NCBI GenBank assembly: GCA_964589485.1
Contig: CAZPRK010000001.1
Coordinates: forward strand, 48,369-112,368
Length of the DNA: 64,000 bases
Direction of reading: 5' to 3'
Source of the DNA: an uncultured Methanosarcinales archaeon
GTDB taxonomy: Archaea > Nanobdellota > Nanobdellia > Woesearchaeales > CAYSVS01
The position numbers and the translations under genes were made by a program. The notes beneath the pieces are model-generated. The model made no database searches. It had not been told where the DNA came from and saw only the letters and a list, made by a program, of their open reading frames with translations. The first letter of the stretch is position 1; each line of letters starts with the position of its first letter. Below, piece by piece: positions 6,001-41,228 of the stretch.

Positions 6001-9000
6001 CTTCAAAAACTAAAGTAGATTCAATTCTATATTGATCAGTATGTCCAATAATTTCAATAAACCCTATAAAGTTAGGATTTGAACCAGAAAGAAATATTTC
6101 ATTATTCCCGGCAAGTGAATCCCTCTCGCTTGCAATATTTGCTTCAACTGCTTCGTCTTCTAATTCATTACATAAATCCTCATTGCCTGAAGTAATGGCA
6201 TCAAATAAAACACAATCATTAGAACTAATTAATTTATTATCAGCTGAATCTATATGCTCTTGTGTACAAAATGAATCATCATTAATATATCCTGTACATT
6301 TATCTTTATAATCATCTAAAGTTAAATCTTTACATTGATCAACTTTATTATTTCTAATTGCTCTTAACAATAAACATTGATTTTGTTCTCCTTCTCCATC
6401 TAATGCCAAACAATCTTCTTTTTCTCCTAAATACATAGAAACGCATTCTTTAAATGGTTGATCTAATTCTTTTGGACAATATGCCTGAACATTAGCTTGT
6501 AACAATTCAGTAAAATCAATATTAGTATTTAGATTTTTACCAACGCCATTAAAAAGCTTAGCATAAGTAGAATCATATTCAAAATCAGTAAAATCATGTT
6601 GACATGTAACTTCTTTATTTGCAGTAACTTGAACATTTGTTGATAAAGTAGATAATTTAAATTCTCCAGGACTCACACTATATTCTAAAGACTCACCAAG
6701 ATTACATATTCCATCATTATCATCATCTTGTCCATCATTTGAAACATCTTTTTTACCTGCTACGCTACAATCGTCACAAGTATCTAAGTCAAAATCTCCG
6801 CAAACAAATTTATTTAATGGATCTATATCGTTTTCATCATCCACACCATCATTATCATCGTCATTATCAGGATAAATAGGATTAAAATAATCTAGAGGTT
6901 CATCACATAATCCATCTCCATCAGTATCCGGATGATATTCATGTTCAGAAGAAACTTTTCCATCTGTTATTGAAAATCCAATTCCTTTTCCACAATCATC
7001 ACAACCATCGTTATCAAAATCACCACAAATTGTATAATCATCGTCATTTTCATCAAAATAAGTATCATATTCACAATCAGTAATATTAGTTCCTCGCTTT
7101 CCTAATCCATCTCCATCTACATTTACACAACTTTTTCCGCTAGAATCACAGTTTCCATCTCCATCAAAATCAACTCCATCTTGATCAGGATCAAATCTTC
7201 CTAAAAAAGAACAATCATCACAACTATCTTCATCAGAATCTCCACAGAAATAAATATCTTTACTATAATCTACACCATCTTTATTTTTATCATTAATATC
7301 TAATACACCATCATTATCATCATCTTTATCAGTATTAGTAGCTGAAGGATAATCTTCAGGATCATCACATAACCCATCCCTATCAGTATCAGGCCAAGCT
7401 TCACTTCCACCATCTAATTCATTTGCCACTAAATTATTTTTATTTACAACTCTTATTACTCCAGCTCCACAATCATCACAACCATCATTATCTATATCAC
7501 TACACACTAAAGGATTTGTATCATCTTTATCTAAATCTTCATCTACTCCATCATTATCTCCATCATCATCACATACGTCACCTTTTAAAGTTACTCCAGG
7601 AACTCCATCTTCAGGTTCAAAGTCTTCATCAGAATTAGTTTGATCAAAATTCTTAGTACGCGGACAATTATCTGGACCTGCATTACATTTACATCCACCA
7701 TCTTTAATTAATATTTCTTGTTTACTTAAATCAGGACATTCTTTCAAATATCCATCATTTTCACCATCACAAATCCCATCTCTATCAGAGTCAGGCGTAC
7801 AAACATTTTCATCATTATTATCTCCAAAAATACATATTCTAGATGTAGTTTTTTTATGTTCCCCTAAATCTGTGATAGTTAATAAAGTTACATCTACATA
7901 TCCATCTTGATCACCATACACATTACTTGCAGTTAAAGAAAACTTTCTTCCTTTTTGTTCTCCCTTAACTTTTTCCTTTGTATCAAAATCCCAATAATAA
8001 CTTTGAATATTAGGATCTTCTTCAGCTTCAAAATAAATTTCAGCATCTTTAGCAAAAGAAACGCCATCAATTGGTGAAGTTATTACAGCTTTGGGTTCTT
8101 CTCCTGATTCCTCTATAGAATTTAATCTTAATTTAGCAGTCATATCTAACCAATTTTCAAAAGCATCCATATCATAACTAAAAACATTATAATTTAATTT
8201 TAAATTTTTTTCTTGCGGCAAACATAAAAAATCTACATTATCATTTTGTAAATCATATTTTAATACAGCATCACAAACATCAGCATTAAATCCAGAATAT
8301 TCAACTGTTAAAAATTCACCAATTTCATTTTCATTTTTTTGCACACTTTGTTCTAAAGCTGCAAAAACTTTATTTTTATCATTCCCAGCGGAATAAAATC
8401 TTACAAAATTTTTAATTTCGTTAACAAAACTAATATCTTCTTCACCAAAATTTATAGGTCTTACAAATAATCTAATAAAATTTACAGCAGCATCTGCTGG
8501 GCTTTTAAAAAAAGAAGTAAATAAAGTAGCTAAATTAGTTGATTGTAATTTAATTTCAGAATGTTGTGAAAAAATTAATGTTTTTAATTCTGCATCATAC
8601 CACACTTTTTTATTATTATTACATATTTTAAACCCATTATTTTTAACATTTGAACATAATTCTTCATCTAAATTTAGTTTAGTCAATATTTGACCATCTG
8701 TATCAATATCATCGTTTAAAGAAACCCCTGCAGCAACATCAAAAATTCCATTATCATTTTTATCATATTTTAAAACACAAACATTATTCATTGGTTTATC
8801 TACAGAATTATAATAATCTTCTAAACCAGGAACATCTTCTAAACTATTTACAACTTTATTTAATTCATCACAATGAATGGAGTATTTTGTTCCTGCTAAA
8901 TCAAGTAACTGGTTTGCTACAACTTTAGTTCTAGTAGTCCATTTTCCTTTTTCACAAAAATGATCTCCATCTAAATTATTTATTGATCCACTATTTTTAT

Positions 9001-11857: not shown

Positions 11858-11967
11858 CCTTTATAACCTCTTTTATATGATATATTATATTTTAATAATT
11901 AATTTATATATAAACCTTGTGATTTAAAATATAATTATTTATATAGAAATTATTTATCCTTTATCGA

Positions 11968-27983: not shown

Positions 27984-30900
27984 TTATAACCTCTGTATTA
28001 AACCTCTTCTTGGTTCAAAAATATCACCACCTCTTTTTAGCTTGTCTACAATTTCTTCTACTTCATTTTCATTTAATCCCTTTTCTTTTGCAGAATTAAC
28101 AATTTCTTCAAGCGGAATAGCTTTTCCATATTGATTTTCTAATTCATTAAGAATTTCTTTTATAATTGAAATTTTATTTCTTGCACTAGATGTAATCCCT
28201 GAAGTAATTCTATCAATATCTATTTTACCAGTATCTGGATCTAATCCAACTTCAGTTAAACAAAAATTCAATAAATCAATTGATTTTTTTGTATCTTCTT
28301 TTAAAACTTCATCGCCTAACCTTAATTTACAAGCAGCTTCAGCCAACCTTATAATTGCTTCAAGCTGTCTTGTTGTAATAGGAACAGCTTTAACTCCTGC
28401 TTCTTCTGAAGAAGAACTATTTCTCATTTGAACATAATATTTTTGAATATCTTCAATTGCTTCATCGGATAATGTAGGAGAAACAAATCTTCTAGCATAT
28501 GCTATATATTTTCTTAATATATCAGTACTTATTTCTGTTTCATCAACATCTGGCGTTTTATGTGATTCTAAAATAAAAGAAGCCATTTTTGCATCTTTTT
28601 TTTCATCTGGAAGATCTTTAATTGGAAATATTAAATCAAATCTTGAAATTAAAGCAGGAGGTAAATTAATTTGTTTTCCTATTATGTCATAAGGGTCAAA
28701 CCTTCCAAATTTCGGATTAGCTGCAGCTAATACTGTTGTTTCACATCTTAATGTTGCTTGTATATTTGCTTTAGAAATTGTAATAGTTTGTCCTTCAAGT
28801 GCTTCATGCATTGCACTTCTATCTTCAGGTGACATTTTATCTAATTCATCTATACATACTAATCCTTTATTAGCTAAAACTAAAGCTCCTGCTTCCAAAC
28901 TCCATCCTCCCAAAAATTCATCCTTAACTACAGCTGCAGTTAATCCTGCACCTGATGCACCCTTTCCACTAACAAATCTTGCTTTAGTTGATATTTTTGA
29001 AGCTCGTTTAAGTAACTGAGAATTGTGTACAACAACTCCATTTGCAATATAATTATGGGTTGATTCTATTTCTAAGTCATAAACAAAATCATCACATAAT
29101 TCTTCTTTAATACTTAAAATTTCATCCCAAAAAACATCAGCATGGGATATTTGATTTAATTTTTTAACATCATTTAAATCTATATTTGATAAATATTGAG
29201 ATATTTTTTTTGTAATACTTACACTAGGTAATCTATTATTTTGTTCATAATGAGCATATGAACTTCTTATAATACCCATTTCCGATTGTTTAAGCTTTAA
29301 ATCAATTCTTATTTTTTTTAATAAATCATTTATATTAGGTATCAAATCTATATTAGTATTATATAATTTTGTATTTTGTATTAATAAATTAATTTCATTT
29401 TTTTTCCTTTTAGACAAAAACCCAATTTTATTGATAAAAGGTTTAACAAATTCTCCACCAATAATAATTTCATAACTTTTTACTTTTCTTTTATTAACTG
29501 TATTTGTAGCAAATTTAATTTTTTCTTTAAATAAACTTATTACACCAAACCTAAGTAAACATAACTGGATATTTTCTGCTAAATTTTTACTAATAGATGA
29601 AAATTCAATTTGTCTCTTTTTTACATTAATATTAGCATCACACTCAAACAAAGCAGAAATAAAATTACTTAATATTTCATCAGAAGATTTCAAGATTAAA
29701 TTAGGTATACTTTTATTTAAAGATCCTTCCATAAGTTCTTTAAAATTTAAATTTAAATAATCTACTAAATTTTTAGATAAAGTATAAATTTCTTTAGTTT
29801 TATTTAATCCATCTCTTTCAGTAACGTTTACATCAAATAAAGATTTTATTAACTTTGAAAAATCATTTAAAACGCAATTATCTTCATTAGTTAAACTAAC
29901 CCATGCGCTAGTTTTTGAATATGCAACATATCCATCTCCACATAAATAGCCTAATAATCTAGATAAATCCAATGATACAAATTCAGGATATTTTAATTTC
30001 TTAGAATTTTTTGCATATTTTGGAATAAAATTACTAATAGTTTGAATTTCATTTTTAATTTTTACACTTCTAGGTGCAGCTATCCGTTCTCCAACCTTAA
30101 AACTTTGAGCATCCTTTGCAATAATTAAACCATTATGTACTTGAAATAAAGGATGGTTTTTAGTGAGTTTTAAAGTTACACCTCTTCTTGTTTTTATCAC
30201 TAATAGTTTTTCATTAATTTTTCTCTTCCAAACTCTAACTCCTTTTCCATTTTTAATTTTACCATCAAAAAATAAACTAGGAAGAGTTAAACTTTCTATT
30301 TCAACATTATCATTAATAATATTATATTCATCAACTAAATCTTTTATTCTTTTTATTTCTCCATTTGATAATAGAATTTTTGTATCTCCATGTAAACATT
30401 TTCCCGCACCAGGGTCCCCTATTAATAATATATGTATATCTCCTCTTGTTGAAGCTCCATCGGTTCTAATTTTTTTTACTCCCCCAATTAAAGAATATAA
30501 TATAGCTTCTTTTATTTTATCATATCCATAAATACTAGGTGCACAAGCTTCAACCATTTTTAAATATATTTTAGGATCTTTCGCCAAAGTTTTTATTGCA
30601 TCAATATCTTCTTTACTAATTTGTATCTCACTATAATCTTCTTCCACAGGATCTATATGATTTGCTTCAATAATTAAATCAAATCTTGTACTTTGTCCAC
30701 CAGATCTCATTATAATTGGAACTTCTTTCACAAACCCAGTAACTTTAATTTTAGTTCCAGGGTTAGTTCTTTTATCAGAAATTGGACTTACTAAATCTTC
30801 TTTAAGTAAAAGATTCATTCTTTTAGGTTGTTCTCCTCCTTCTAAATCATCTGTATTTTCTTCTAAAACAATTCCTTGCGCATCAATTAATTCTTTATTT

Positions 30901-31382
30901 AGTAATCTAAATTTCCCTTTCCTACCACATCCACATTTACTTGGTTCCTTAAATTTTTGATCTAATTGTAAAACATTCAATACATTACCACAAACAGGAC
31001 ATTCAAACTTAGCAGAAGTAACTTGTGGACGTACATCTGATTTTTGCCTAACTACTCCATCAAGAGAAATAAACTTACCAATATGAGCGCTCCTTATTTC
31101 TCTAATTAAAATATCTTGACTATCTGGTAAATTCTTAAAACGAATTCTAAAATTAACAGTTTCTTGAGGTGTATCAAACTGTTCAACTGCTATTTCAGCA
31201 GCTTTAATAGACTCTTCTGGAGTTTCAAGTAACTCGTTAGCTATTTCTATATCAAATTTAGATAAATCTAAAAAATCAATTACAAAGTAATTATTTCCCT
31301 TTCTAATTGATTCCATTAAATCAGTATTACAATTAGTTTCCAAATACTCTTGAAACTTCTTAATCTGCTCTGCAGCGTCCAT
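27984..31382 (-). CDS. mcm: MCM replicative helicase containing a 459-aa intein
   Basis: N-terminal zinc finger CPVCG..CGCG; Walker A GDPGAGK|...|SQLLK split by the intein; Walker B and arginine finger region (DELDKM, SRFDLIF); extein about 673 aa. Confidence 0.95.
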   Translation of the reverse strand: MDAAEQIKKFQEYLETNCNTDLMESIRKGNNYFVIDFLDLSKFDIEIANELLETPEESIKAAEIAVEQFDTPQETVNFRIRFKNLPDSQDILIREIRSAHIGKFISLDGVVRQKSDVRPQVTSAKFECPVCGNVLNVLQLDQKFKEPSKCGCGRKGKFRLLNKELIDAQGIVLEENTDDLEGGEQPKRMNLLLKEDLVSPISDKRTNPGTKIKVTGFVKEVPIIMRSGGQSTRFDLIIEANHIDPVEEDYSEIQISKEDIDAIKTLAKDPKIYLKMVEACAPSIYGYDKIKEAILYSLIGGVKKIRTDGASTRGDIHILLIGDPGAGKCLHGDTKILLSNGEIKRIKDLVDEYNIINDNVEIESLTLPSLFFDGKIKNGKGVRVWKRKINEKLLVIKTRRGVTLKLTKNHPLFQVHNGLIIAKDAQSFKVGERIAAPRSVKIKNEIQTISNFIPKYAKNSKKLKYPEFVSLDLSRLLGYLCGDGYVAYSKTSAWVSLTNEDNCVLNDFSKLIKSLFDVNVTERDGLNKTKEIYTLSKNLVDYLNLNFKELMEGSLNKSIPNLILKSSDEILSNFISALFECDANINVKKRQIEFSSISKNLAENIQLCLLRFGVISLFKEKIKFATNTVNKRKVKSYEIIIGGEFVKPFINKIGFLSKRKKNEINLLIQNTKLYNTNIDLIPNINDLLKKIRIDLKLKQSEMGIIRSSYAHYEQNNRLPSVSITKKISQYLSNIDLNDVKKLNQISHADVFWDEILSIKEELCDDFVYDLEIESTHNYIANGVVVHNSQLLKRASKISTKARFVSGKGASGAGLTAAVVKDEFLGGWSLEAGALVLANKGLVCIDELDKMSPEDRSAMHEALEGQTITISKANIQATLRCETTVLAAANPKFGRFDPYDIIGKQINLPPALISRFDLIFPIKDLPDEKKDAKMASFILESHKTPDVDETEISTDILRKYIAYARRFVSPTLSDEAIEDIQKYYVQMRNSSSSEEAGVKAVPITTRQLEAIIRLAEAACKLRLGDEVLKEDTKKSIDLLNFCLTEVGLDPDTGKIDIDRITSGITSSARNKISIIKEILNELENQYGKAIPLEEIVNSAKEKGLNENEVEEIVDKLKRGGDIFEPRRGLIQRL
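29022..30398 (-). mobile_element. Intein with LAGLIDADG homing endonuclease, inserted in the MCM P-loop between Lys and Ser
   Basis: Starts CLHGDTKILL just after GDPGAGK; ends VVHN followed by +1 Ser (SQLLK); LAGLIDADG-like blocks LLGYLCGDGYV and FISALFECDANI. Confidence 0.85.
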
Positions 31383-31395
31383 TTTCTAAATAAAG

Positions 31396-31989
31396 TTACT
31401 TAACTTTTTTTAAATTAGCCACAAGCATATCTAAAGCTTTATGTACTGCGTCTACACTTTTAGTTCCAGTACAAACAACTTTTCCATTACTAAATAATAA
31501 AAATGTTGCTTTTGCTTCATTCAATTTATAGACTAAACCCGGAAATTGTTCTGGTTCATATTCAGTATTAGGTAACTTCATTGCTAAAGTGTTTAAATTT
31601 AAATCCATACCAACACTTCCACTTGCTACCATATTTTGAATTTTTACTTCAGGTTCAATTTTAATATCGACATTTATTTTTTTTAAACTTTTAATTATTT
31701 TTTTTATCGATTCATGAACTTTTTCCATTGATCTTGCCCCAGTACAAACAACTTTTCCTGAACTGAAAATCAAAGCACTTGTTTTTGGTTCTTTTATTCT
31801 AATTACTAATCCTGGAAACTGTTCAGGGTTATATTCCGTATTACTTAAAGTTGCAGCCATTTTTTCCAATGGAATATCATGTTCCAAAGAAGTACTTACA
31901 ACAATATTTACAATTTCCATACTTGTTTTTTCTTCTTTTTTAGCCATTTTAAATTTACCCCCAAATTCCTTTATAAGCTTTATAAACAC
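31396..31989 (-). CDS. tbp: TATA-box binding protein (TBP); probable true start at ATG 31945..31947 (MAKKEEK)
   Basis: Two TBP repeats (NIVVSTSL..PGLVIRIKEPKTSALIFSSGKVVCTGA and NMVASGSV..PGLVYKLNEAKATFLLFSNGKVVCTGT). The listed ORF starts at GTG. The internal ATG is preceded by GGGGG and TATA-like motifs. Confidence 0.9.
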   Translation of the reverse strand: MFIKLIKEFGGKFKMAKKEEKTSMEIVNIVVSTSLEHDIPLEKMAATLSNTEYNPEQFPGLVIRIKEPKTSALIFSSGKVVCTGARSMEKVHESIKKIIKSLKKINVDIKIEPEVKIQNMVASGSVGMDLNLNTLAMKLPNTEYEPEQFPGLVYKLNEAKATFLLFSNGKVVCTGTKSVDAVHKALDMLVANLKKVK

Positions 31990-32000
31990 ATTTATAAAAG
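31968..32000 (-). promoter_or_regulatory. Candidate TATA/BRE promoter for the tbp-mcm operon
   Basis: Minus strand reads CTTTTATAAATGTGTTTATAAAGCTTATAAAGG, 20-50 nt upstream of ATG 31947, followed by a GGGGG SD-like motif. Confidence 0.4.
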
Positions 32001-32067
32001 ACAGTTAGTATTTAAATACTTTCATTTTTAAATGGTTTTTTCAGATAATATATATTCTTGTTCCTAT

Positions 32068-32089
32068 AACCCCTTTGTTTCTTATGGAG
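32068..32089 (-). promoter_or_regulatory. ORB-like (origin recognition box) candidate
   Basis: Plus strand AACCCCTTTGTTTCTTATGGAG resembles the reverse complement of ORB cores (ACCCCTTTCGTTTCCACTGGAG). Confidence 0.3.
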
Positions 32090-32189
32090 AAAAGAAGAAA
32101 TATGGCTTAATTTACTAAATTAAGCCCAAATTAAGTTCCATTTCATTATAAAGTTTAAAATAAGATTTGTTTTCAATATAGAAATTAAA

Positions 32190-33116
32190 TTAAAGAAAGT
32201 AAATTAAATTACTTATTTTTTTAATTTCATTTAAACCAATATTTTTTTTAAATTCAATTTCTCCATATTTATGCACTATTATTTCAGAATTATTATAATT
32301 TATAATTAAAACAATATTAGCATCTAATTTTATTTTAAATTTTTTCCTTAATTCTTTAAAATTTAAACTAGTTTTCTTTAATGGTTTTGTTTTATATGTA
32401 TTTTTAGATAAGCATTTTTCAATTTTATAATTTTCATCACTTATAATTTCACTATGATTACATTTTTTTTCTTTTTTAACCTTAATTTCCGTTATCCCAT
32501 TATTCCATATATTAATGTGAATTAAATTTTGAGAATATTCTTTATTATTCAAAAATTTTAATGCTTGGGTTATTTGAACAGAAGAAACTATTGCTATTAA
32601 AGAGTTTAAAACACCTTCATTGTCACAATTTTTATTTATATTACTTTTATATACACAATCAAAACAAATATTCGAATCAACAAAAAGAACATTTCCAATA
32701 ACCCCTGTTGCAGCTGCATGAATCCAAGAAATATTAGTTTTTTTTGAATATCTATTTATTACTCTTCTAGTTTCGAAATTATCAGTACAATCTAAAATTA
32801 AATCTGACTTAAGTATTTTTGAATTATTATCATCTAAATGTGTTGCATGTGATTTAATAGTTATATTAGAATTTATTTTTTTTAACTTTTTAATAGCCAC
32901 TTTAGCCTTTAATTCATTAATATCTTTTTCATCATAAAGAATTTGTCTTTGTAAATTATCTAACTGTACTATATCTTGATCAATTAATATTAAATTTACA
33001 CCAGCTCTTGCAAGTAAACTAGAAGCAAAAGTCCCTAATGCTCCAACTCCAACAATTGTAACTGTTTTTTTTTGTGAAGTTTTACCTAATATTGATTCTT
33101 GTCTTACATATCTCAT
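32190..33116 (-). CDS. ubaA: E1-like ubiquitin-activating enzyme homolog (UbaA/ThiF/MoeB family) with about 100-aa C-terminal extension
   Basis: IVGVGALGTFASSLLARAGV Rossmann motif, NLQRQ, CFDC CxxC. Confidence 0.75.
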   Translation of the reverse strand: MRYVRQESILGKTSQKKTVTIVGVGALGTFASSLLARAGVNLILIDQDIVQLDNLQRQILYDEKDINELKAKVAIKKLKKINSNITIKSHATHLDDNNSKILKSDLILDCTDNFETRRVINRYSKKTNISWIHAAATGVIGNVLFVDSNICFDCVYKSNINKNCDNEGVLNSLIAIVSSVQITQALKFLNNKEYSQNLIHINIWNNGITEIKVKKEKKCNHSEIISDENYKIEKCLSKNTYKTKPLKKTSLNFKELRKKFKIKLDANIVLIINYNNSEIIVHKYGEIEFKKNIGLNEIKKISNLIYFL

Positions 33117-33210
33117 TTAAATGCCTAATTGATAAGTATTTTTAAAAGTAACCATTCCAAATCAACATAATTGAATAGATAAATTTGTATTTAGAAAACT
33201 ATTTAAACCT

Positions 33211-33240
33211 CCGCTTCTGATGGAAATTCTCGTAGGGGGT
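33211..33240 (+). promoter_or_regulatory. ORB-like element abutting the cdc6 start (also carries the GGGGG SD)
   Basis: CCGCTTCTGATGGAAATTCTCGTAGGGGGT resembles the euryarchaeal ORB pattern (TTCCAGTGGAAAT...GGGGG) recalled from memory. It lies 4 nt upstream of the cdc6 ATG. Confidence 0.35.
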
Positions 33241-33244
33241 AAAG

Positions 33245-34453
33245 ATGAGCAAAGAATTAAATAATTTTTTTGAAAAATTTCTAACAAGGCAACCATTGTT
33301 CTTAAATAAAACAGTAATACAATCAAATTATTCACCAGAAAAAATTGAACATAGAGATGATCAAATCCAAAAAATTGCAGATATTCTTGCTCCTTCGCTT
33401 AGACTTGAAAAACCTAGTAATTTATTCATTTATGGTAAAACTGGTACAGGAAAAACTCTTAGTGTAAAATATACAACTGATAAAATTTTAGAAGTTGCAG
33501 AAAAAAAAGGAACTCCAATTAAAATTTTTTATTTAAATTGTAAATTAAAAAAAGTAGCTGATACTGAATATAGATTAATTGCACAATTAGCAAGAGAATT
33601 AGGTAAAACTATCCCTGCTACAGGTTTACCAACAGATGAAGTTTATAAAATTTTTTTTGAAGCTTTAGATAAAGATAAAAAATTATTTTTAGTTATTTTA
33701 GATGAAATAGATCAATTAATTAAAAAAGCAGGAGACGAAATATTATATAATTTAACTAGAATTAATACTGAATTAAAAAATTCACAAATTGCTATAATTG
33801 GTATTTCAAACGATTTAGTATTTGCAGATTCGTTAGATCCTAGAGTTAAAAGTTCACTTTCAGAAGAAGAAATTGTTTTTCCTCCATATAATGCAATTCA
33901 AATCCAAGATATCTTAAAACAAAGAGCAAAAATAGGATTTAAAGATGGTGTTATAGAACCAGGTGTAATTGAAAAATGTGCAGCTTATGCGGCAAGGGAA
34001 CATGGAGATGCTAGAAGAGCAATTGAATTATTGAGAGTTTCTGGAGAAATAGCAGAAAGATCAGGTAAAACAATTTTAGAAATAAAAGATTTAGATGAGG
34101 CTGAAGATAAAATTGAAAGGGATAGAATTTTAGATGTAATTATTACTCAACCTAAACAACATCAAGCTACATTATATTCAATATTAGCTGTTAAAGATAA
34201 TAAAAAAAGCACAATATTTACTGGTGAAGTATATGAAGTATACAAAGAAATTTGTCAAAAAGTTAATTTACAATTTCTAACTCAAAGAAGAATATCAGAT
34301 GTTCTTGCAGAATTAGATATGTTGGGCATAATTAACGCTAAAGTTATTTCTAAAGGTCGATATGGTAGAACTAGAGAAATTTCATTATCCCTTCCTGAAG
34401 CATCAGTAAATAAAATTAAAAATTTACTTGAGGAAGGTTTAGACTTATGTTAG
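33245..34453 (+). CDS. cdc6: Cdc6/Orc1 replication initiator
   Basis: Walker A IYGKTGTGKT, AAA+ core, C-terminal winged helix; about 400 aa. Confidence 0.95.
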   Translation: MSKELNNFFEKFLTRQPLFLNKTVIQSNYSPEKIEHRDDQIQKIADILAPSLRLEKPSNLFIYGKTGTGKTLSVKYTTDKILEVAEKKGTPIKIFYLNCKLKKVADTEYRLIAQLARELGKTIPATGLPTDEVYKIFFEALDKDKKLFLVILDEIDQLIKKAGDEILYNLTRINTELKNSQIAIIGISNDLVFADSLDPRVKSSLSEEEIVFPPYNAIQIQDILKQRAKIGFKDGVIEPGVIEKCAAYAAREHGDARRAIELLRVSGEIAERSGKTILEIKDLDEAEDKIERDRILDVIITQPKQHQATLYSILAVKDNKKSTIFTGEVYEVYKEICQKVNLQFLTQRRISDVLAELDMLGIINAKVISKGRYGRTREISLSLPEASVNKIKNLLEEGLDLC

Positions 34454-35988
34454 AATTAAAAAAAAAAAAAGAAGTTATAACAAACAGTTTAAATGAAGGT
34501 TTTTTAGTAGGGAAAACTTTTTTTGAAGAAGAACAGGAATTAAATCTCAAAGAATTAGATAAAAACTGTTTAATTTTAGATGATAGTATTGAAAAATTAA
34601 CTAAAATAGAAAAGCATAATTGGATTGATTTCGACAAAGCTAAAGTTCTTGCCGAAAAAAAAAAAAATAATAAAATTCTAAAAAGTTTTAATGAAGTAAT
34701 AGAAAATGGAGTTGAAGTAGTTAAAGAAAATGAAAATATTCAAATAATTTCATCATATAATAAAGAAATTTGTAAAAAAAGAGAAGTTGAAGATTTTGTT
34801 ATGTATTTTAACAAAAGATTTACTGCACTTGAAAAAATTCTTAGAAATAGACATGAATTATCTGGAAGTATTTCTATTTCTAGAGTATTAAGTAGAAATG
34901 AAAAAGATTCAGTTTCAATTATTGGTATAGTTCAAGATAAAAGATTAACTAAAAATGGACATCTTTTTATTACATTGGAAGATAAAACAGGCATAATTAG
35001 AGTTTTAGTAAGTAAAGATAAACCTGAATTATTCCAACTAGCTCAAGATATTGTATTCGATGAAGTTATAGGTGTAGTTGGAGCAAATGGAGATAAAATT
35101 ATTTTTGCAAACAATATAATTCAACCAGATATTCCTCTTAATAAAGAATTAAAAAAAAGTCCAGATGAAGCTTATGCTTTATTTATGTCAGATGTCCATG
35201 TTGGAAGTTATAATTTTTTAGAAGAAGAATTTAATAAATTTTTAAATTGGATAAATGGTAAATCTGGGGATGAGAAACAAAAATTAATATCCAGTAAAGT
35301 TAAATATATTTTTTTTGCAGGTGATTTAGTAGATGGCGTAGGTATTTATCCTGGACAAGAAAAAGATTTATCAATTCCAGATATATATAAACAATATGAA
35401 AAATGCGCAGAGCTTTTATCTAAAATTCCTGCTAACATCAATATTATAATAGCACCAGGAAATCATGATGCTATGAGAATTGCTGAACCTCAACCAAGGT
35501 TATATGAAGATTTTGCGGGCCCTATACTAAACCTACCTAATGTAACTGTAGTTAGTAACCCTGGTATGGTCAATGTTCATGGTAATGAAGATTTTCCTGG
35601 ATTTGATGTAATGTTATACCATGGTTATTCTTATGATTATTATGTAGCAAATGTTGATAGTTTAAGAAATAAAGGGGGTTATAATAGAGCAGATTTAATT
35701 ATTAAATTTTTACTACAAAGAAGACATTTAGCTCCATCCCATTCATCAACATTATATCTTCCTGAAACAGAATATGATCCTTTAGTGATTGATCATGTTC
35801 CTGATATTTTTGTCTCTGGACATATTCATAAAGCCGTTGTTTCAAATTATAGAAACATTACAATGATTAGTAGTAGTTGTTGGCAAGCTAAAACTGAGTT
35901 TGAAGAAAAAATGGGACATGAGCCTGAACCTGCAAGAATCCCTATGGTTAATTTACAAACAAGGGAAGTTAAAATATTGAGGTTCTAA
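34447..35988 (+). CDS. DNA polymerase II (PolD) small subunit DP1
   Basis: N-terminal OB region and C-terminal calcineurin-like phosphoesterase motifs (DVHVG, GNHD); overlaps the cdc6 stop. Confidence 0.9.
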   Translation: MLELKKKKEVITNSLNEGFLVGKTFFEEEQELNLKELDKNCLILDDSIEKLTKIEKHNWIDFDKAKVLAEKKKNNKILKSFNEVIENGVEVVKENENIQIISSYNKEICKKREVEDFVMYFNKRFTALEKILRNRHELSGSISISRVLSRNEKDSVSIIGIVQDKRLTKNGHLFITLEDKTGIIRVLVSKDKPELFQLAQDIVFDEVIGVVGANGDKIIFANNIIQPDIPLNKELKKSPDEAYALFMSDVHVGSYNFLEEEFNKFLNWINGKSGDEKQKLISSKVKYIFFAGDLVDGVGIYPGQEKDLSIPDIYKQYEKCAELLSKIPANINIIIAPGNHDAMRIAEPQPRLYEDFAGPILNLPNVTVVSNPGMVNVHGNEDFPGFDVMLYHGYSYDYYVANVDSLRNKGGYNRADLIIKFLLQRRHLAPSHSSTLYLPETEYDPLVIDHVPDIFVSGHIHKAVVSNYRNITMISSSCWQAKTEFEEKMGHEPEPARIPMVNLQTREVKILRF

Positions 35989-35989
35989 A

Positions 35990-38900
35990 ATGGTAACTGC
36001 AAGCGAAAATATGCAAAAATATTTTAATAAAATTGAAGAAGATGTGAGTATAGCCTTTACAAAAGCTCAAGAAGCAAAAAAATTAGGTTTTGATTATGAA
36101 AAAGAAGTGGAAATTACTTTAGCTAAAAACATGGCTGAAAGGGTAATTGGTATTATTTCAGTTGTAGCACCCCAAATGAAAAACTCAGGTGCAGCAGAAA
36201 GAATTATTGAATTAGAAAAAAAATATGGAATTTTAGATTGGAAAGTTGCACTTGAAATTGCTTTAGAAATTTCTGAAGAAAAATTTTGTAAATTTAAAGA
36301 TAAAAAAGAAGCTATTGAAATTGGAATTAGGGCGGGATTTGCATATGGGACGGTAGGTGTTGTAAGTAGTCCATTAGAAGGTTTTGTTAGTTTAGATATA
36401 AAACCAAGAAGAGATGGTCAAGGTGAATATTTTTGTATGAATTTTTCCGGACCTATTAGAAATGCAGGAGGAACTGCTGCAAGTTTAAGTGTAATTATTG
36501 CTGATTATGTTAGAGTAAAGTTAGGTTATCAAAAATATGATCCTTCAGAAGAAGAAATTAAAAGAACTTTTGTTGAAATTACAGAATATCATGAACGTGT
36601 TACTAATTTACAATATTTCCCAAGTCAAGAAGAAGTTAATTTTATGACAAAAAATTGTCCTGTTGAAATTAGTGGAGATCCAACTGAAAAATTTGATGTT
36701 CCAACTTATAAAGATTTACCAAGAGTAAACACAAATAAATTAAGAGGTGGATTTTGTTTAATTCATTCTAGTTGTATTCCATTAAAAGCAGAAAAACTTT
36801 GGAAACAATTATCAATATGGGGAAGTAGTTTTAATTTAGAACATTGGTCTTTTTTGGAAGAATTTATTAAAATTAAAAAAAATGCTCACGCTGAAGGATC
36901 TAACGATGAAGAAAAAGAATCAGGAAAAGTTTTACCTGACTTTACATTTATTAAAGATATAGTTGCCGGTAGACCCGTATTAAGTCACCCGTTAGCAAAA
37001 GGAGGGTTTAGATTAAGATATGGAAGAAGTCGATTTTCAGGATATAGTGGCCAAAGTATCCACCCCGCAACTATGTATGTTATGAGAAGTTATATTGCTA
37101 CAGGAACTCAATTAAAAGTTGAACGTCCTGGTAAAGGAGCTGCATTTACTCCATGTGATAAATTACAAGGTCCTATTATTAGATTAAAAAATGGAAGTGT
37201 TGTACAACTAAATAAGGAATCTGAAGCTAAAGAATATGTTAAAGAAATGGAAGAAGTTTTATTTTTAGGGGATGTTTTAATTAATTATGGTGATTTTTTT
37301 GATAGGGCTCACCCTTTAGTTCCAGCAGGTTATTGTGAAGAATGGTGGATTCAAGAACTTGAAAAAGCTACAGTTGATTTATTTGGAAATTTAGATATTG
37401 AAAAATTATCAGATTTAACTTCTATTAATGCAAATATTTTTGAAACTTTATTTGAAGACCCCATAAATGAAGAAATTTCAGCTAAAAATGCAATTAATAT
37501 ATCTAAAAAATTAAAAATACCTTTACATCCTTTTTATACTTATTATTGGGATGATATTTCTATTGAAGATTTTAAAAAATTATACGACTGGCTTTCAAAA
37601 GGAAATATTCAAAAAGAATCTGAAGTAAATAAAATTATTTTAAAAATTAAAGATGAAAAAAAAATCTTAGAATTTATTGGTATGCCTCATTTAGTGGTTA
37701 ATAATGAATTTATTGTAATTGAAAAACAACATGCACAAGCATTATTAGGTACATTAAGTAATTTTGAAAAAAAACTTGAAGATCATAAATCTACATTAGA
37801 GTTAATTAATTCTATTTCTGAAATAAAAATTAGAGATAAATCTGGAACTTATATTGGAGCAAGAATGGGACGTCCAGAAAAAGCTAAAATGAGAAAAATG
37901 AATGGTTCTCCACATTCTTTATTTCCTGTAGGTGAAGAAGGGGGTAGATTAAGAAGTTTTCAAGCTGCAATGGAAGTCGGTAAAATTAAAGCAGAATTAC
38001 CTAATTATAAATGTAAAAAATGTAATAAAAACACAATTTATACTGTTTGTGAAGTTTGTCATGTTACAACTACGCAACTTTTTTTTTGTCAATCATGTGG
38101 ATTAATAGAAACAGAAATATGTAAAACTCATGGCAATACTAAGCCTTATAGTGAACAAGAGATAGATATTCAACATTATTTTAAAAAAGCATCAAGAAAA
38201 TCAAATGGCGCCATTTCAAAATTAATTAAAGGAGTAAAAGGAACTAATAATAAAAACCATAGACCTGAAAATTTAATTAAAGGAATAATTAGATCCAGAT
38301 ATAATTTATTTGTAAATAAAGATGGAACTATTAGATATGATGCTTCTGAATTAACTTGTACTCATTTTAAACCTAAAGAAGTTAATGTTGAAATTGATAA
38401 ATTAATAGAGTTAGGTTATACTAAAGATTACTTAGGTAAAGAATTAACTGACAAAAACCAAATTTTAGAAATTAAACCACAAGATGTAATTTTACCTGCT
38501 TGTCCTATATCCCCAGATGAAAAAAGTGATGATGTTTTATTAAACATAACCAAATATATTGATGACCTTTTAGTAAACTTCTATGGTTTACCTCCTTTTT
38601 ATAAATCAAAATCAAAAAAAGATTTAATAGGCCAATATATTCTTGGACTTGCTCCTCATACTTCAGCTGCAATGGTTGGACGTATTATTGGATTTAGTCA
38701 AACCCAAGCATTTTTAGCGCACCCTTATTTCCATGCTGCAGAAAGAAGAGATACTGATGGGGATGAACTTGGTTTTATTCTTTTAATGGACGCTTTCCTT
38801 AATTTTTCTAAATCATTTCTCCCAGAACATAGAGGAAGTACAATGGATGCTCCTTTAGTAATGACTTCAATTTTAAATCCCTCTGAAGTTGATGATATGG

Positions 38901-39502
38901 CATTTAATGTAGATATTGTTAATAAATATCCTTTAGAGTTATATGAAGCGGCTTTGGAACATAAAATGCCTTGGGAAGTTAAAATTAAATTAATTAAAGA
39001 TGTTCTAGATACAGAAAACCAATATGAAAATATGAAATTTACACATGATACTGATAATGTAAATACAGGAATTCTTTGTTCTGCTTATAAAACACTCCCA
39101 TCAATGGAGGATAAATTAAAAGGTCAAATGTTAATTGCTGAAACTTTACGTAGTGTTGAACCTATGGATGTAGCAAGGTTAGTAATTGAAAAACATTTTT
39201 TAAAAGATACAAAAGGTAATTTAAGAAAATTTTCAATGCAACAATTTAGATGTGTAAAATGTAATGAAAAATTTAGACGTCCACCTTTAATAGGAAAATG
39301 TACTAGTTGTAGTGGTAAAATTTTATTTACAATTGCACATGGTAGTGTAATAAAATATTTAGAACCAAGTATTAGTTTAGCTAATAAATATAATGTTCCT
39401 GCTTATTTAAAACAAACTTTAACCTTATTACAAAGAAGAGTAGATGGAGTTTTTGGAAAAGAAAAAGATAAACAAGAGGGGTTAGGGAAATGGTTTGGTT
39501 AA
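35990..39502 (+). CDS. DNA polymerase II (PolD) large subunit DP2, no intein
   Basis: 1170 aa with characteristic DP2 blocks and zinc-finger Cys clusters (CKKCNK..CEVCH, CVKCNEKF..CTSCSG). Confidence 0.95.
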   Translation: MVTASENMQKYFNKIEEDVSIAFTKAQEAKKLGFDYEKEVEITLAKNMAERVIGIISVVAPQMKNSGAAERIIELEKKYGILDWKVALEIALEISEEKFCKFKDKKEAIEIGIRAGFAYGTVGVVSSPLEGFVSLDIKPRRDGQGEYFCMNFSGPIRNAGGTAASLSVIIADYVRVKLGYQKYDPSEEEIKRTFVEITEYHERVTNLQYFPSQEEVNFMTKNCPVEISGDPTEKFDVPTYKDLPRVNTNKLRGGFCLIHSSCIPLKAEKLWKQLSIWGSSFNLEHWSFLEEFIKIKKNAHAEGSNDEEKESGKVLPDFTFIKDIVAGRPVLSHPLAKGGFRLRYGRSRFSGYSGQSIHPATMYVMRSYIATGTQLKVERPGKGAAFTPCDKLQGPIIRLKNGSVVQLNKESEAKEYVKEMEEVLFLGDVLINYGDFFDRAHPLVPAGYCEEWWIQELEKATVDLFGNLDIEKLSDLTSINANIFETLFEDPINEEISAKNAINISKKLKIPLHPFYTYYWDDISIEDFKKLYDWLSKGNIQKESEVNKIILKIKDEKKILEFIGMPHLVVNNEFIVIEKQHAQALLGTLSNFEKKLEDHKSTLELINSISEIKIRDKSGTYIGARMGRPEKAKMRKMNGSPHSLFPVGEEGGRLRSFQAAMEVGKIKAELPNYKCKKCNKNTIYTVCEVCHVTTTQLFFCQSCGLIETEICKTHGNTKPYSEQEIDIQHYFKKASRKSNGAISKLIKGVKGTNNKNHRPENLIKGIIRSRYNLFVNKDGTIRYDASELTCTHFKPKEVNVEIDKLIELGYTKDYLGKELTDKNQILEIKPQDVILPACPISPDEKSDDVLLNITKYIDDLLVNFYGLPPFYKSKSKKDLIGQYILGLAPHTSAAMVGRIIGFSQTQAFLAHPYFHAAERRDTDGDELGFILLMDAFLNFSKSFLPEHRGSTMDAPLVMTSILNPSEVDDMAFNVDIVNKYPLELYEAALEHKMPWEVKIKLIKDVLDTENQYENMKFTHDTDNVNTGILCSAYKTLPSMEDKLKGQMLIAETLRSVEPMDVARLVIEKHFLKDTKGNLRKFSMQQFRCVKCNEKFRRPPLIGKCTSCSGKILFTIAHGSVIKYLEPSISLANKYNVPAYLKQTLTLLQRRVDGVFGKEKDKQEGLGKWFG

Positions 39503-39507
39503 AAAAA

Positions 39508-39804
39508 TTATGTATCATCACTTAAAATAACCTGAGCATGTTCAATTCCTTGAATTTTAATTGTTTCTTGTATTAAACCTAAATTTCTAAAAAATTCAAT
39601 TGATTTATTACCCACTATATTTAAAATATGAACTTCTTTAATAATTTCTTTAATTTCTTCTTCTGGTTTTTCTTCACCTTTATAAAAATTTGAAGTTAAA
39701 TCTAATTGTAAATTTTTTTCTTCAAATTTCTTTCCTAATACATCACTATCACAAATAGCCAAAATAACTTGTCCTTCTAAATTTATATGTTTTTTAATTA
39801 TCAT
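39508..39804 (-). CDS. Conserved hypothetical protein, 98 aa
   Basis: ORF overlapping aIF2-beta stop/start by 4 nt. Confidence 0.4.
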   Translation of the reverse strand: MIIKKHINLEGQVILAICDSDVLGKKFEEKNLQLDLTSNFYKGEEKPEEEIKEIIKEVHILNIVGNKSIEFFRNLGLIQETIKIQGIEHAQVILSDDT

Positions 39805-40208
39805 ATTTTACTTTTCACAGGATGTCTTGCTCCACAAGCCATACATTTAATATTAGAAAAACCAGATTCTTTTGTTATTTTAGTATCAGGTTTACCACAA
39901 TCTGGACATAAAACAAAATCTTGTGCATATTTTTTTATCTTATCATTAATTCTTAATGCAGGTATTTTAGCTCCAAGTATTAATCCTGTTTTTTTAAGAT
40001 CACCCGGTGTAGCTAACTCTTTTAATATATATTTCAATAAATGTTCTTCTTCTCTTGCTAAAGTTTGAGAAATTTGTTTAAAATTACTAATAATAGTTTT
40101 ATTTCCTTGAATATGTCCTTTAACTGTTGGTATTTCGAATCTTGCTGATTCAAACACCGATTTAGGTAACTTATCCCTTCCTTCTTTTAGCATCTTTTTA
40201 TAATCCAT
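39801..40208 (-). CDS. eif2b: Translation initiation factor aIF2 beta subunit
   Basis: C-terminal C4 zinc ribbon CPDCGKPDT...CMACGA; about 135 aa. Confidence 0.85.
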   Translation of the reverse strand: MDYKKMLKEGRDKLPKSVFESARFEIPTVKGHIQGNKTIISNFKQISQTLAREEEHLLKYILKELATPGDLKKTGLILGAKIPALRINDKIKKYAQDFVLCPDCGKPDTKITKESGFSNIKCMACGARHPVKSKI

Positions 40209-40432
40209 AATTTTTAGTTAAAATCTCTTATATTTAAATCTGATGTTTAACTCCTACCCCTTAATTTCCTTTAGAACTCTATATTATAATAATAAATATT
40301 AATATATTTCTTTATTTTCTATATTGTAAATAAATAAAATAATAATAAATATAAATAATAAAATATATGTTTCCATAAGAAATAAAGGGGTAAGTGTAGG
40401 TAAAATATAGTAAATGTTTAAATACAACTAAG

Positions 40433-40447
40433 AACTACCTGGTAGTT
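40433..40447. promoter_or_regulatory. Perfect 7-bp inverted repeat (AACTACC-t-GGTAGTT) 17 nt upstream of the TrmB-family regulator gene; candidate operator
   Basis: Palindrome read directly from sequence. Confidence 0.35.
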
Positions 40448-40463
40448 GTAACAGGTACTAAAT

Positions 40464-41228
40464 ATGATTATTGAAAAAGAAATATTATCTAAACTTAAAG
40501 ATTTTGGTTTAAATTCTTATGAATCAAAACTTTGGACAGCATTATTGTCTAGAGGAAGTAGTACATCTAGTGAATTAAGTGATATAGCCAATGTTCCAAG
40601 AAGTAGGAGTTATGATGTTTTAGAAAGTTTGGAAAGAAAAGGATTCGTTATACTTAAGTTGGGTAAACCAATAAAATATGTAGCAGTTCCACCATCTCAA
40701 GTACTTAATTTAATTAAAAATAATGCAGATAAAGAAGCTCAAGAAAAAATAAATCAATTAGAAAAATTAAAAAATAGTGATATTATCAAAGAATTAAACT
40801 CTTTACATCAAGAGGGAAAAAATACTATTGATAAAATAGATTTAAGTGGAAGCATTAAAGGACAACCAAATATTCATAATCATTTAGAACAAATGATAAA
40901 AAAAGCAAAAAATTCTATTTTAATGGTAGCTCCTAGTGCATCATTAAAAGGAAATAAAAGTTTTATTTTAGAAAAATTAGAAGAATCTAAAAAAACAGGT
41001 ATAAAAACAAAATTAATTCTTAATGGAAAAAAAGAAGACGATATTATTAAAAAAGTTGATTATTATAAAAAAGATATGGATGGTATGTTTTGTGTTGTAG
41101 ATAATAGTGAAGTATTATTTATGTTAACTGATGAAAAAACACATCCAACTTATGAAGCTGCTGTTTGGTTAAATTCAGACTTTTTTGCAAATTCTCTTAG
41201 TTCAATTGTTGATGAATTTACTAAATAA
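40464..41228 (+). CDS. TrmB-family winged-helix transcriptional regulator
   Basis: N-terminal YESKLWTALLSRGSSTSSELSDIANVPRSRSYDVLESLERKGFV matches the TrmB HTH signature. Confidence 0.75.
   Translation: MIIEKEILSKLKDFGLNSYESKLWTALLSRGSSTSSELSDIANVPRSRSYDVLESLERKGFVILKLGKPIKYVAVPPSQVLNLIKNNADKEAQEKINQLEKLKNSDIIKELNSLHQEGKNTIDKIDLSGSIKGQPNIHNHLEQMIKKAKNSILMVAPSASLKGNKSFILEKLEESKKTGIKTKLILNGKKEDDIIKKVDYYKKDMDGMFCVVDNSEVLFMLTDEKTHPTYEAAVWLNSDFFANSLSSIVDEFTK

Follow-up and report, generated by a model that had tools for sequence, protein, structure and literature searches.

The 64-kb window analysed here (the whole stretch of 64,000 nucleotides, about 26% GC) belongs to the genome of a marine member of the Woesearchaeota (DPANN) and contains the gene for the replication initiator Orc1/Cdc6 (cdc6), followed by those for the DP1 and DP2 subunits of PolD. 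We consider it probable that the canonical replication origin of this genome is a module at 40256–40391, in which two inverted origin recognition boxes (ORBs) enclose an A+T-rich spacer, and that a rearrangement has displaced it from cdc6. An earlier note on this DNA had placed a candidate origin at 31990–33244, immediately upstream of cdc6; the two boxes flagged there would then be satellite boxes in promoters.

An inverted ORB pair beside trmB

The module consists of a minus-strand ORB at 40256–40275 and a plus-strand ORB at 40372–40391, the latter the best match in the window, inverted and with their G-strings outward as in related genomes. The 96 bp between them (40276–40371) have a GC content of 6% (94% A+T) and include the least stable 90 bp of the window (40278–40368, 4.4% GC, about 4.5 standard deviations from the mean). 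The module lies between the genes for aIF2-beta and a TrmB-family regulator, adjoining the 5′ end of trmB, about 7 kb downstream of the interval flagged earlier. It is not adjacent to the initiator gene, as cdc6 starts 7 kb away, with DP1, DP2, DUF424 and aIF2-beta in between.

These boxes were scored with a model derived from the clade itself. We compared the DNA upstream of cdc6 in 80 loci encoding relatives of the window Cdc6 (L001–L080, from species-representative genomes); hundreds of proteins carrying a Woesearchaeota or Nanoarchaeota label share 60–72% identity with that Cdc6. Upstream of cdc6 in these relatives, a 20-nt element, TCCAYAGGAAAYNAAGGGGT, occurs repeatedly, and it is found almost nowhere else in 866 kb; 129 ORBs from this position gave a 28-nt position weight matrix (PWM). 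Plain consensus searches had returned few or misleading matches before this clade-specific consensus was derived from the relatives. Chance level was set by 50 shuffles, which reached a maximum PWM score of 16.9. Four matches in the window itself score above 12: 40370–40397 (plus strand, 36.6), 32063–32090 (minus strand, 31.4), 40250–40277 (minus strand, 30.8) and 33199–33226 (minus strand, 14.6). The degenerate clade consensus matches three times, compared with 0.06 expected. A search for further ORB copies had been proposed as a check on the origin upstream of cdc6; run with the clade PWM, it does find extra copies, with two better boxes, but these sit 7 kb downstream, outside the flagged coordinates.

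Archaeal origins consist of an A+T-rich unwinding element flanked by ORBs (PMC5333045; PMC4010727), and the sequences upstream of cdc6 in the relatives have the layout of such a textbook origin, with the initiator gene adjacent. An inverted ORB pair lies directly upstream of cdc6 in 60 of the 62 loci that have at least 700 bp of upstream sequence, with the minus-strand ORB at −200 to −1100 and the plus-strand ORB at −25 to −300 relative to cdc6 and the G-strings again outward. The spacers measure 90–999 bp (median 268) and have a GC content of 19%, compared with 37% for the loci; their most A+T-rich 60 bp average 6.6%. Upstream of the origin and cdc6, about two dozen relatives have a divergently oriented trmB.

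Synteny makes the window module orthologous to this origin module of the relatives. It shares with them the trmB neighbour and the inverted pair, and two further loci connect the arrangements. A Logan contig from an 81% relative (L095) carries cdc6, a promoter box, the TATA box, an ORB (PWM score 35.8), an A+T spacer of about 126 bp, a second ORB (28.1) and trmB in one piece. In a TARA relative whose TrmB is 70% identical (L091–L093), the order is aIF2-beta, minus-strand ORB (39.2), an 89-bp A+T spacer, plus-strand ORB (36.4) and trmB, as in the window.

Separately, four relatives carry strong orphan ORBs 4–5 kb upstream of cdc6 (L057 at about 1947, L059 at about 825, L065 at about 831 and L078 at about 2190). 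These fall about 200 nt inside an open reading frame for a coiled-coil protein of 210–229 amino acids, for which Pfam gave only sub-threshold helix-turn-helix matches. Either the start codons of these frames are mis-called or this is another gene bearing an initiator box.

Genes and control elements

The features discussed below are listed in window order.

27984–31382, minus strand: mcm, intein-bearing, second gene of the tbp-mcm operon (Pfam MCM, MCM_OB, MCM_lid, Intein_splicing, LAGLIDADG_3)
31396–31947, minus strand: tbp, TATA-binding protein (Pfam TBP, 208 bits)
31948–32062, minus strand: tbp-mcm control region, with several TATA-like elements (ATTTAAAAAT, GTATTTAAATAC, TTTTATAAAT, TTTATAAAG, TTATAAAGG)
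32069–32088, minus strand: full ORB upstream of tbp, TCCATAAGAAACAAAGGGGT (PWM score 31.4)
32104–32126, no strand: inverted repeat with perfect 11-nt arms (direct sequence check and RNA folding)
32190–33116, minus strand: ThiF-family E1-like adenylyltransferase (Pfam ThiF, 173 bits)
33200–33207, plus strand: cdc6 TATA box, TATTTAAA, kept as TTTATATA or TTTAAATA at the same place in relatives
33207–33225, minus strand: promoter-embedded ORB, TTCCATCAGAAGCGGAGGT (truncated PWM score 21.0; positional conservation)
33235–33240, plus strand: GGGGGT, Shine-Dalgarno-like, 4 nt before the cdc6 ATG
33245–34453, plus strand: orc1/cdc6 (profile matches)
34447–35988, plus strand: polD small subunit DP1 (profile matches)
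35990–39502, plus strand: polD large subunit DP2 (profile matches)
39508–39804, minus strand: DUF424 (profile match)
39801–40208, minus strand: aIF2-beta (profile match)
40256–40275, minus strand: ORB of the candidate origin beside aIF2-beta, TCTAAAGGAAATTAAGGGGT (PWM score 30.8)
40276–40371, no strand: candidate duplex unwinding element, the 96-bp spacer (6% GC)
40372–40391, plus strand: ORB of the candidate origin beside trmB, TCCATAAGAAATAAAGGGGT (PWM score 36.6)
40464–41228, plus strand: trmB-family regulator (Pfam TrmB)

The cdc6-DP1-DP2 operon named in the earlier note is confirmed by profile matches to Orc1/Cdc6, PolD DP1 and DP2, and the order of the three genes is identical in all 80 related loci. 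The label ubaA, given there to the gene at 32190–33116, is not supported: the protein scores 98 bits against the NCBIfam UbaA model (NF047750), for which the cut-off is 450, and membership of the ThiF family is all that the profiles bear out. The start of tbp is likely to be the ATG at 31947 rather than the GTG at 31989, because family alignments start at residues 18–24 of the GTG-started frame; this ATG is also preceded by GGGGGT.

Four other observations concern the remainder of the window. The MCM intein, with its LAGLIDADG homing-endonuclease domain, spans residues ~329–788; the MCM of L081, a contig whose Cdc6 is 90% identical to that of the window, has 673 amino acids, and the difference in size fits the intein. 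A palindrome, AACTACC-T-GGTAGTT, lies at 40433–40447 between the trmB TATA box (~40416–40424) and the trmB ATG; its word GGTTGTAACA is kept in relatives, and it is a candidate TrmB auto-operator. An open reading frame of at least 3,953 codons on the minus strand (2–11860) runs off the start of the window. Scans of the window for tRNAs and Rfam families returned no match.

Proposed displacement from cdc6

In the history that we propose, the ancestral module would have lain directly upstream of cdc6 and beside trmB, as in 60 of the 62 relatives; the gene order of L095 is the one that we read as ancestral. A rearrangement that broke the DNA at window positions 33117–33198, between the TATA box of cdc6 and the ORB nearest to this gene, would then have split the module from cdc6, leaving the gene with its core promoter and operator box alone, now abutting the ThiF-family gene. 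In L084, a second contig of the 81% relative, the cdc6-proximal ORB is at −148 and there is no ThiF-family gene on the origin side of cdc6. The flank of the window ORB beside aIF2-beta, GGGGTAGGAGT, resembles the flank of the cdc6-proximal ORB of the 81% relative, GGGGTAGGAAT. Inverting the block from cdc6 to aIF2-beta in a trmB-origin-cdc6 order would explain the right-hand junction, placing the former cdc6-proximal ORB beside aIF2-beta. A single inversion does not account for the orientation of the left flank, for which a further inversion is needed. A block swap starting from an order such as that of L038 (aIF2-beta, origin, cdc6-DP1-DP2, trmB) would be an alternative.

Because the junction between the ThiF-family gene and cdc6 is common to the window and the 90% relative, the event would predate their split. 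In the TARA relative L091–L093, DUF424 has a gene other than DP2 on its left. L081, the contig of this sample with cdc6-DP1-DP2, runs on into another gene, and its 16 kb contain no ORB pair; if these contigs share one genome, linkage between cdc6 and the origin is lost in it as well.

Independent contigs rule out that the gene order results from misassembly. The order tbp, ThiF-family gene, cdc6, DP1, DP2, DUF424, aIF2-beta, ORB pair, trmB and purine genes was assembled independently from several different samples, and the origin region is almost identical across those contigs.

Some population variants of this locus have altered gene calls. L085 (1782–4525) encodes a Cdc6 of 404 amino acids and a DP1 of 395 amino acids, and in L089 (8060–8730) DUF424 and aIF2-beta are split or shortened; these may be frameshifts or assembly errors. 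Among the 80 metagenome-assembled contigs, 15 end within 300 bp upstream of cdc6, and two NCBI contigs of one genome, L084 (1–210) and L094 (1–278), both break inside the A+T origin spacer, which L095 spans. Origins thus seem to be systematic assembly break points and to be lost from metagenome-assembled genomes.

Strand composition

A cumulative GC-skew analysis had been suggested as a check on the origin upstream of cdc6. The raw minimum does fall near 33 kb, but with gene strand in the model, a change point at 40.3 kb or further right gives the better fit. We dropped the raw skew as origin evidence, as its minimum coincides with the switch from minus- to plus-strand genes and is not independent of it, and replaced it with a binomial model of third-position GC skew that has a gene-strand term, a replication-like term and a fitted change point.

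Both coding-strand and replication-like terms are present in the per-gene skew at third positions. Genes in the left-hand part of the window have a skew of about +0.5 on the minus strand and about −0.1 on the plus strand, and the genes between the two candidate positions follow this left-region pattern, with cdc6 at −0.03, DP1 at 0.00, DP2 at +0.13, DUF424 at +1.0 and aIF2-beta at +0.86. The negative log-likelihood is 1173.7 for a change point at 40336 and 1187.4 for one at 33180, a difference of about 14 units; at four-fold degenerate sites, the values are 289.2 and 294.6, about 5 units apart. When the fit is restricted to 11–53 kb, 40336 is the best change point. The strand-corrected skew favours 40.3 kb or further right over 33.2 kb, in a way that is supportive and not decisive.

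Weighing the module as an origin

Several points weigh against reading the module as the origin of this genome. The case is built from the sequence of an uncultured organism, over 64 kb, and a further ORB pair may lie in some other part of the chromosome. At 96 bp, the spacer is near the lower limit of the range in relatives (90–999 bp). The likelihood surface of the skew model is flat from 40 to 54 kb, and the gene-level signal comes mainly from five genes, two of which have very few G/C third positions. Each of the two ORBs lies just upstream of a promoter (those of aIF2-beta and trmB), so that a purely regulatory role is possible. The box upstream of tbp, described below, is missing from about one third of tbp loci and is hence not obligatory. 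Finally, cdc6 and the presumed origin of Thermococcus kodakarensis are reported to be dispensable for genome replication (PMC5663688), which means that the presence of a canonical module does not prove its use.

These considerations bear on an explanation that we regard as unlikely, in which the 40.3-kb module is a relic or a pure promoter-operator pair and the active origin lies outside the window, or there is no fixed origin. The window makes up 64 kb out of a contig that is at least 255 kb long, and the broad skew optimum is slightly better at 53–54 kb over the whole window; the promoter downstream of each ORB, and the cdc6- and origin-independent replication reported for T. kodakarensis, would fit as well. 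Against this, both high-scoring ORBs and the extreme A+T spacer are kept in two lineages with TrmB proteins 70% identical, the module is orthologous to the cdc6-adjacent one of the relatives, and in a genome with 26% GC, the decay of a relic should have erased the G-strings.

A box in the cdc6 promoter

The earlier note had described an ORB-like element directly before the cdc6 ATG (33245), in the motif CTTCTGATGGAAATTCTCGTAGGGGGT at 33214–33240, which ends 4 nt before this ATG and whose exact string is unique in the window. An ORB-family box is indeed present, but it is on the minus strand, and the G-run of the plus-strand reading is Shine-Dalgarno-like. The conserved element is the word TTCCATCAGAAGCGGAGGT at 33207–33225, which abuts the TATA box TATTTAAA (33200–33207). 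The caveat in the same note that 33211–33240 may simply be a Shine-Dalgarno sequence or promoter was half right, as the region combines a promoter-embedded box with a Shine-Dalgarno-like element.

The proximal box scores 21.0 with a truncated PWM. Because its score with the full 28-nt PWM (14.6) is within the shuffle range (maximum 16.9), its significance rests on positional conservation: a minus-strand promoter box occurs at −60 to +6 in 38 of 80 relatives, compared with 0.09% of random 66-bp segments. In the relatives, this box is weaker than the origin ORBs, lies between the cdc6 TATA box and the ATG, has a degenerate G-string (AGGT) fused to the TATA box and is present in addition to the origin pair. 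It is kept in L081, L083 and L084.

The G-run follows the start codon and not the box. Across the relatives it lies 4–9 nt from the ATG, but 5–17 nt from the box core; in one outlier it is 28 nt from an ATG that is probably a mis-called start codon. It is missing in 19 of 41 loci, those with the ATG within 6 nt after the box, and GGGGGT is replaced by AGGGAT in L081 and by GGTGTT in L084. Because the distance to the ATG is held and the distance to the box is not, and because the run is absent in leaderless relatives, GGGGGT at 33235–33240 behaves as a Shine-Dalgarno-like element, a predicted ribosome-binding site. A similar motif was seen in only 6 of the 46 window genes, and no 16S rRNA gene is present in the window.

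The pattern TGGAAA-N6-11-GGGG occurs twice in the window (0.27 expected), and the plus-strand reading of the proximal motif resembles the Pyrococcus ORB oligonucleotide TTCCAGTGGAAATGAAACTCTGGGGGG, which has a long spacer (PMC1904270). The fixed distance between core and G-string of a Thermococcales-type long ORB (TTCCAGTGGAAA, 9 nt, GGGGG) is not found in the relatives. The reading of 33214–33240 as one plus-strand long-spacer ORB (TGGAAA, 8 nt, GGGGG) was rejected, as the G-run tracks the ATG and is often absent.

A box upstream of tbp and mcm

The second ORB-like motif of the earlier note, AACCCCTTTGTTTCTTATGGAG, is located at 32068–32089 and holds up well. Read on the minus strand (32069–32088), TCCATAAGAAACAAAGGGGT has no mismatch to the degenerate clade consensus and scores 31.4, compared with a shuffle maximum of 16.9. 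Judged by these matches it is clearly beyond chance, a full ORB.

This distal box, kept in L081 and L082, has the same orientation as tbp, whose ATG follows about 143 nt downstream. The window and L081 are almost identical from the tbp start through the ORB, and the sequence beyond the ORB diverges. In L040, L079, L051 and L048, tbp lies 5 kb from a complete origin and has an ORB (a weaker one in L048) in the same orientation upstream, 58–78 nt from the equivalent tbp position and up to 215 nt in L048. We then examined 80 independent tbp loci from metagenomes (L096–L175), counting an ORB where the PWM score was at least 16 at −600 to −80. Among the 72 loci with at least 300 bp of upstream sequence, 49 have an ORB upstream of tbp, co-oriented with it in 46 of the 49; the remaining 192 kb yielded 2 matches (0.01 per kb). 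In 72 of the 80, mcm immediately follows tbp and shares its strand. Because the box at −143 fits this pattern, we read it as an upstream element of a conserved tbp-mcm operon and not as an origin border; it accompanies tbp-mcm in other genomes irrespective of the location of cdc6.

Variants of this arrangement were seen. Twelve tbp loci (L135, L137, L139–L143, L148, L150, L155 and L160 among them) have a tandem ORB upstream, the two copies about 84 bp apart (about 8 helical turns) and both co-oriented with tbp. In L131 (+805) and L172 (+758 from the tbp ATG), a strong ORB lies about 200–250 nt past the end of the ~550-nt tbp, not upstream of it. Most tbp loci also have an array of TATA-like elements upstream of tbp, consisting of ATTTAAAAA, about 5 nt, GTATTTATAAATA and then one or two copies of TTTATAAA, which hints that TBP may titrate or autoregulate its own promoter.

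The inverted repeat that the earlier note placed at 32105–32125, with 9-bp arms, exists and is slightly longer, with 11-nt arms at 32104–32114 and 32116–32126. Folded as RNA it reaches −10.3 kcal/mol (z = −1.5), and 15 of 200 shuffles fold as well. Not kept in the 90% relative (L081) and no more stable than shuffled sequence, it was rejected as an origin element. It lies 64 nt downstream of the ThiF-family gene and is followed on the minus strand by a U-rich tract; it is possibly a terminator hairpin after that gene.

The interval upstream of cdc6 as an origin

The sequence does not support the interval 31990–33244 as a replication origin: its boxes are on the same strand, it has no unwinding element between them and the gap is occupied by a gene. 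In the reading that is conserved, both boxes (32069–32088 and 33207–33225) are on the minus strand and form a direct repeat, not an inverted pair. No plus-strand ORB scoring 8 or more is present in 33117–33244, and the plus-strand ORB that relatives have 70–150 nt upstream of cdc6 is absent from the window. The 1.1 kb between the boxes is ThiF-family coding sequence. The two intergenic regions have GC contents of 21% and 28%, compared with 26% genome-wide, and their duplex stability is near the 10th percentile; neither has a stretch that looks like an unwinding element. The interval does adjoin the initiator gene, which starts at 33245, but its boxes do not occupy the positions of the relatives' origin elements; the distal box follows tbp-mcm and the proximal one is an extra promoter box. 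The placement of the ThiF-family gene, with the ORB of tbp on one side and the promoter of cdc6 on the other, is also particular to this lineage. None of the 80 related loci gave a ThiF-family match upstream of cdc6; the gene is present in L081–L083 and L085–L089, and the 81% relative has an ordinary ORB in its place.

It is accordingly improbable that this interval is the origin, or a second one, with unwinding between the boxes or in the 128-bp spacer between the ThiF-family gene and cdc6. Such a role would draw on two real boxes beside the initiator gene, the usual place of an origin (PMC4010727), and on the raw GC-skew minimum and the divergence of gene strands at ~33 kb; the core of the proximal box is, moreover, nearly palindromic, so that binding in either orientation is conceivable, and its plus strand resembles TTCCAGTGGAAATGAAACTCTGGGGGG. 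It is at odds with the direct orientation of the boxes around a coding gene without an unwinding-like stretch, with the loss of the cdc6-proximal plus-strand ORB of the relatives, with a distal box that follows tbp-mcm where tbp is 5 kb from a complete origin, with a strand-corrected skew that disfavours 33.2 kb by about 14 log-likelihood units and with the lack of conservation of the long-spacer reading.

It is very improbable that the two motifs have no initiator role at all, the proximal one being promoter plus Shine-Dalgarno sequence and the distal one a G-rich word that arose by chance or a site for some other regulator: the full-length PWM score of the proximal box within the shuffle range and the behaviour of GGGGGT would fit, but the distal box has no mismatch to the origin ORB consensus and is repeated in 49 of 72 tbp loci (background 0.01 per kb), the proximal box has counterparts in 38 of 80 cdc6 promoters (0.09% in random segments), and the origin-box sequence that both share makes the same protein their most economical reader. 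Scored against the clade, both are genuine members of the ORB family used around cdc6, sitting in the control regions of the tbp-mcm and cdc6-polD operons.

A proposed mechanism

From the observed sequences, conservation, orientation, spacing, synteny and DNA stability, we infer Orc1 binding, origin firing and the sign of regulation at both promoters. Orc1 binds through its winged-helix domain and the initiator-specific motif (ISM) and deforms DNA (PMC3089459). By analogy, one Orc1/Cdc6 monomer would bind each origin ORB through the winged-helix domain and the ISM of the AAA+ domain, bending and underwinding the DNA, and the inverted ORBs would direct MCM loading onto the A+T spacer from both sides. 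With cdc6 at a distance of 7 kb, the initiator would be provided in trans. Autonomous replication is reported not to depend on cdc6 in cis in Haloferax volcanii and Haloarcula hispanica (PMC4010727), so an initiator gene at this distance is no obstacle in principle.

The box at 33207–33225 is a candidate auto-operator of cdc6. Orc1/Cdc6 occupying this site, downstream of the TATA box and ahead of the cdc6 start, would prevent TFB and RNA polymerase from being recruited and the pre-initiation complex from assembling, and thereby repress its own cdc6-polD operon; we read the box as an auto-repressing operator because of this placement. The tbp-mcm box lies upstream of the TATA array and could serve either activation or repression. 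More generally, it is possible, and we suggest it tentatively, that the Orc1/Cdc6 of Woesearchaeota doubles as a transcription factor with a small origin-box regulon, comprising tbp-mcm and its own cdc6-polD operon, which would couple licensing to the supply of helicase, polymerase and TBP; control in trans would let the origin drift away from cdc6. ORC1/Cdc6 is listed as one of the single-copy core genes of Nanobdellota (preprint 10.64898/2026.05.13.725050).

Comparison with known systems

The window module resembles origins of the oriC1 type (Pyrococcus, Sulfolobus oriC1, Aeropyrum and haloarchaeal oriC1) in having two inverted ORBs, each made up of a TCCA-N3-GGAAA core plus a G-string, on either side of an A+T spacer. 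In Thermococcales the origin lies directly upstream of cdc6-DP1-DP2, as in the relatives of the window. Unlike origins of the oriC1 type, the window module is not adjacent to cdc6; it has two ORBs and a 96-bp spacer, and no mini-ORB array was seen in it. The short spacing between core and G-string in the window ORB is presumably closest to that of the 22-bp Aeropyrum ORB, and not to that of the 34-bp Pyrococcus ORB.

The satellite boxes have a partial parallel in Thermococcales, in which a cluster of ORBs, conserved within that order, lies inside dp1; Cdc6/Orc1 binds it in Pyrococcus, yet replication does not initiate there (Matsunaga et al. 2007, PMC1904270). Like that cluster, the satellite ORBs of the window are outside an origin with an unwinding element and near replication genes. 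Unlike it, they lie in promoter regions and not in coding sequence, and the one upstream of tbp is independent of the distance to the origin.

A second parallel is with initiators that act on promoters. Bacterial DnaA autoregulates. In Sulfolobus/Saccharolobus, Orc1-2 is an Orc1/Cdc6-family protein that acts at promoters (PMC6061795). As with Orc1-2 and DnaA, an initiator box in the promoter of the initiator itself and in that of another replication operon suggests transcriptional control by an Orc1/Cdc6-family protein. Orc1-2 is, however, a dedicated non-initiator paralogue with its own motif, whereas the boxes of the window are the same as the origin ORBs and ORC1/Cdc6 is reported to be single-copy in the phylum.

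In the searchable literature, we found no description of ORBs or origins for this group and no defined DPANN origins. A 2026 preprint on 208 complete Nanobdellota genomes rotated these to ORC1/Cdc6 as a proxy for the origin and does not mention ORBs (10.64898/2026.05.13.725050). In this marine lineage the proxy would be off by 7 kb, and in the TARA relative cdc6 and the origin module are on separate contigs. The ORB model places an inverted-pair origin upstream of cdc6 in nearly all relatives (60/62), and the origin-type box upstream of tbp-mcm in two thirds of the loci examined offers a testable regulatory link. The origin itself is of a well-known kind; less expected are its separation from cdc6 and the strong association of an initiator box with tbp-mcm across the Woesearchaeota.

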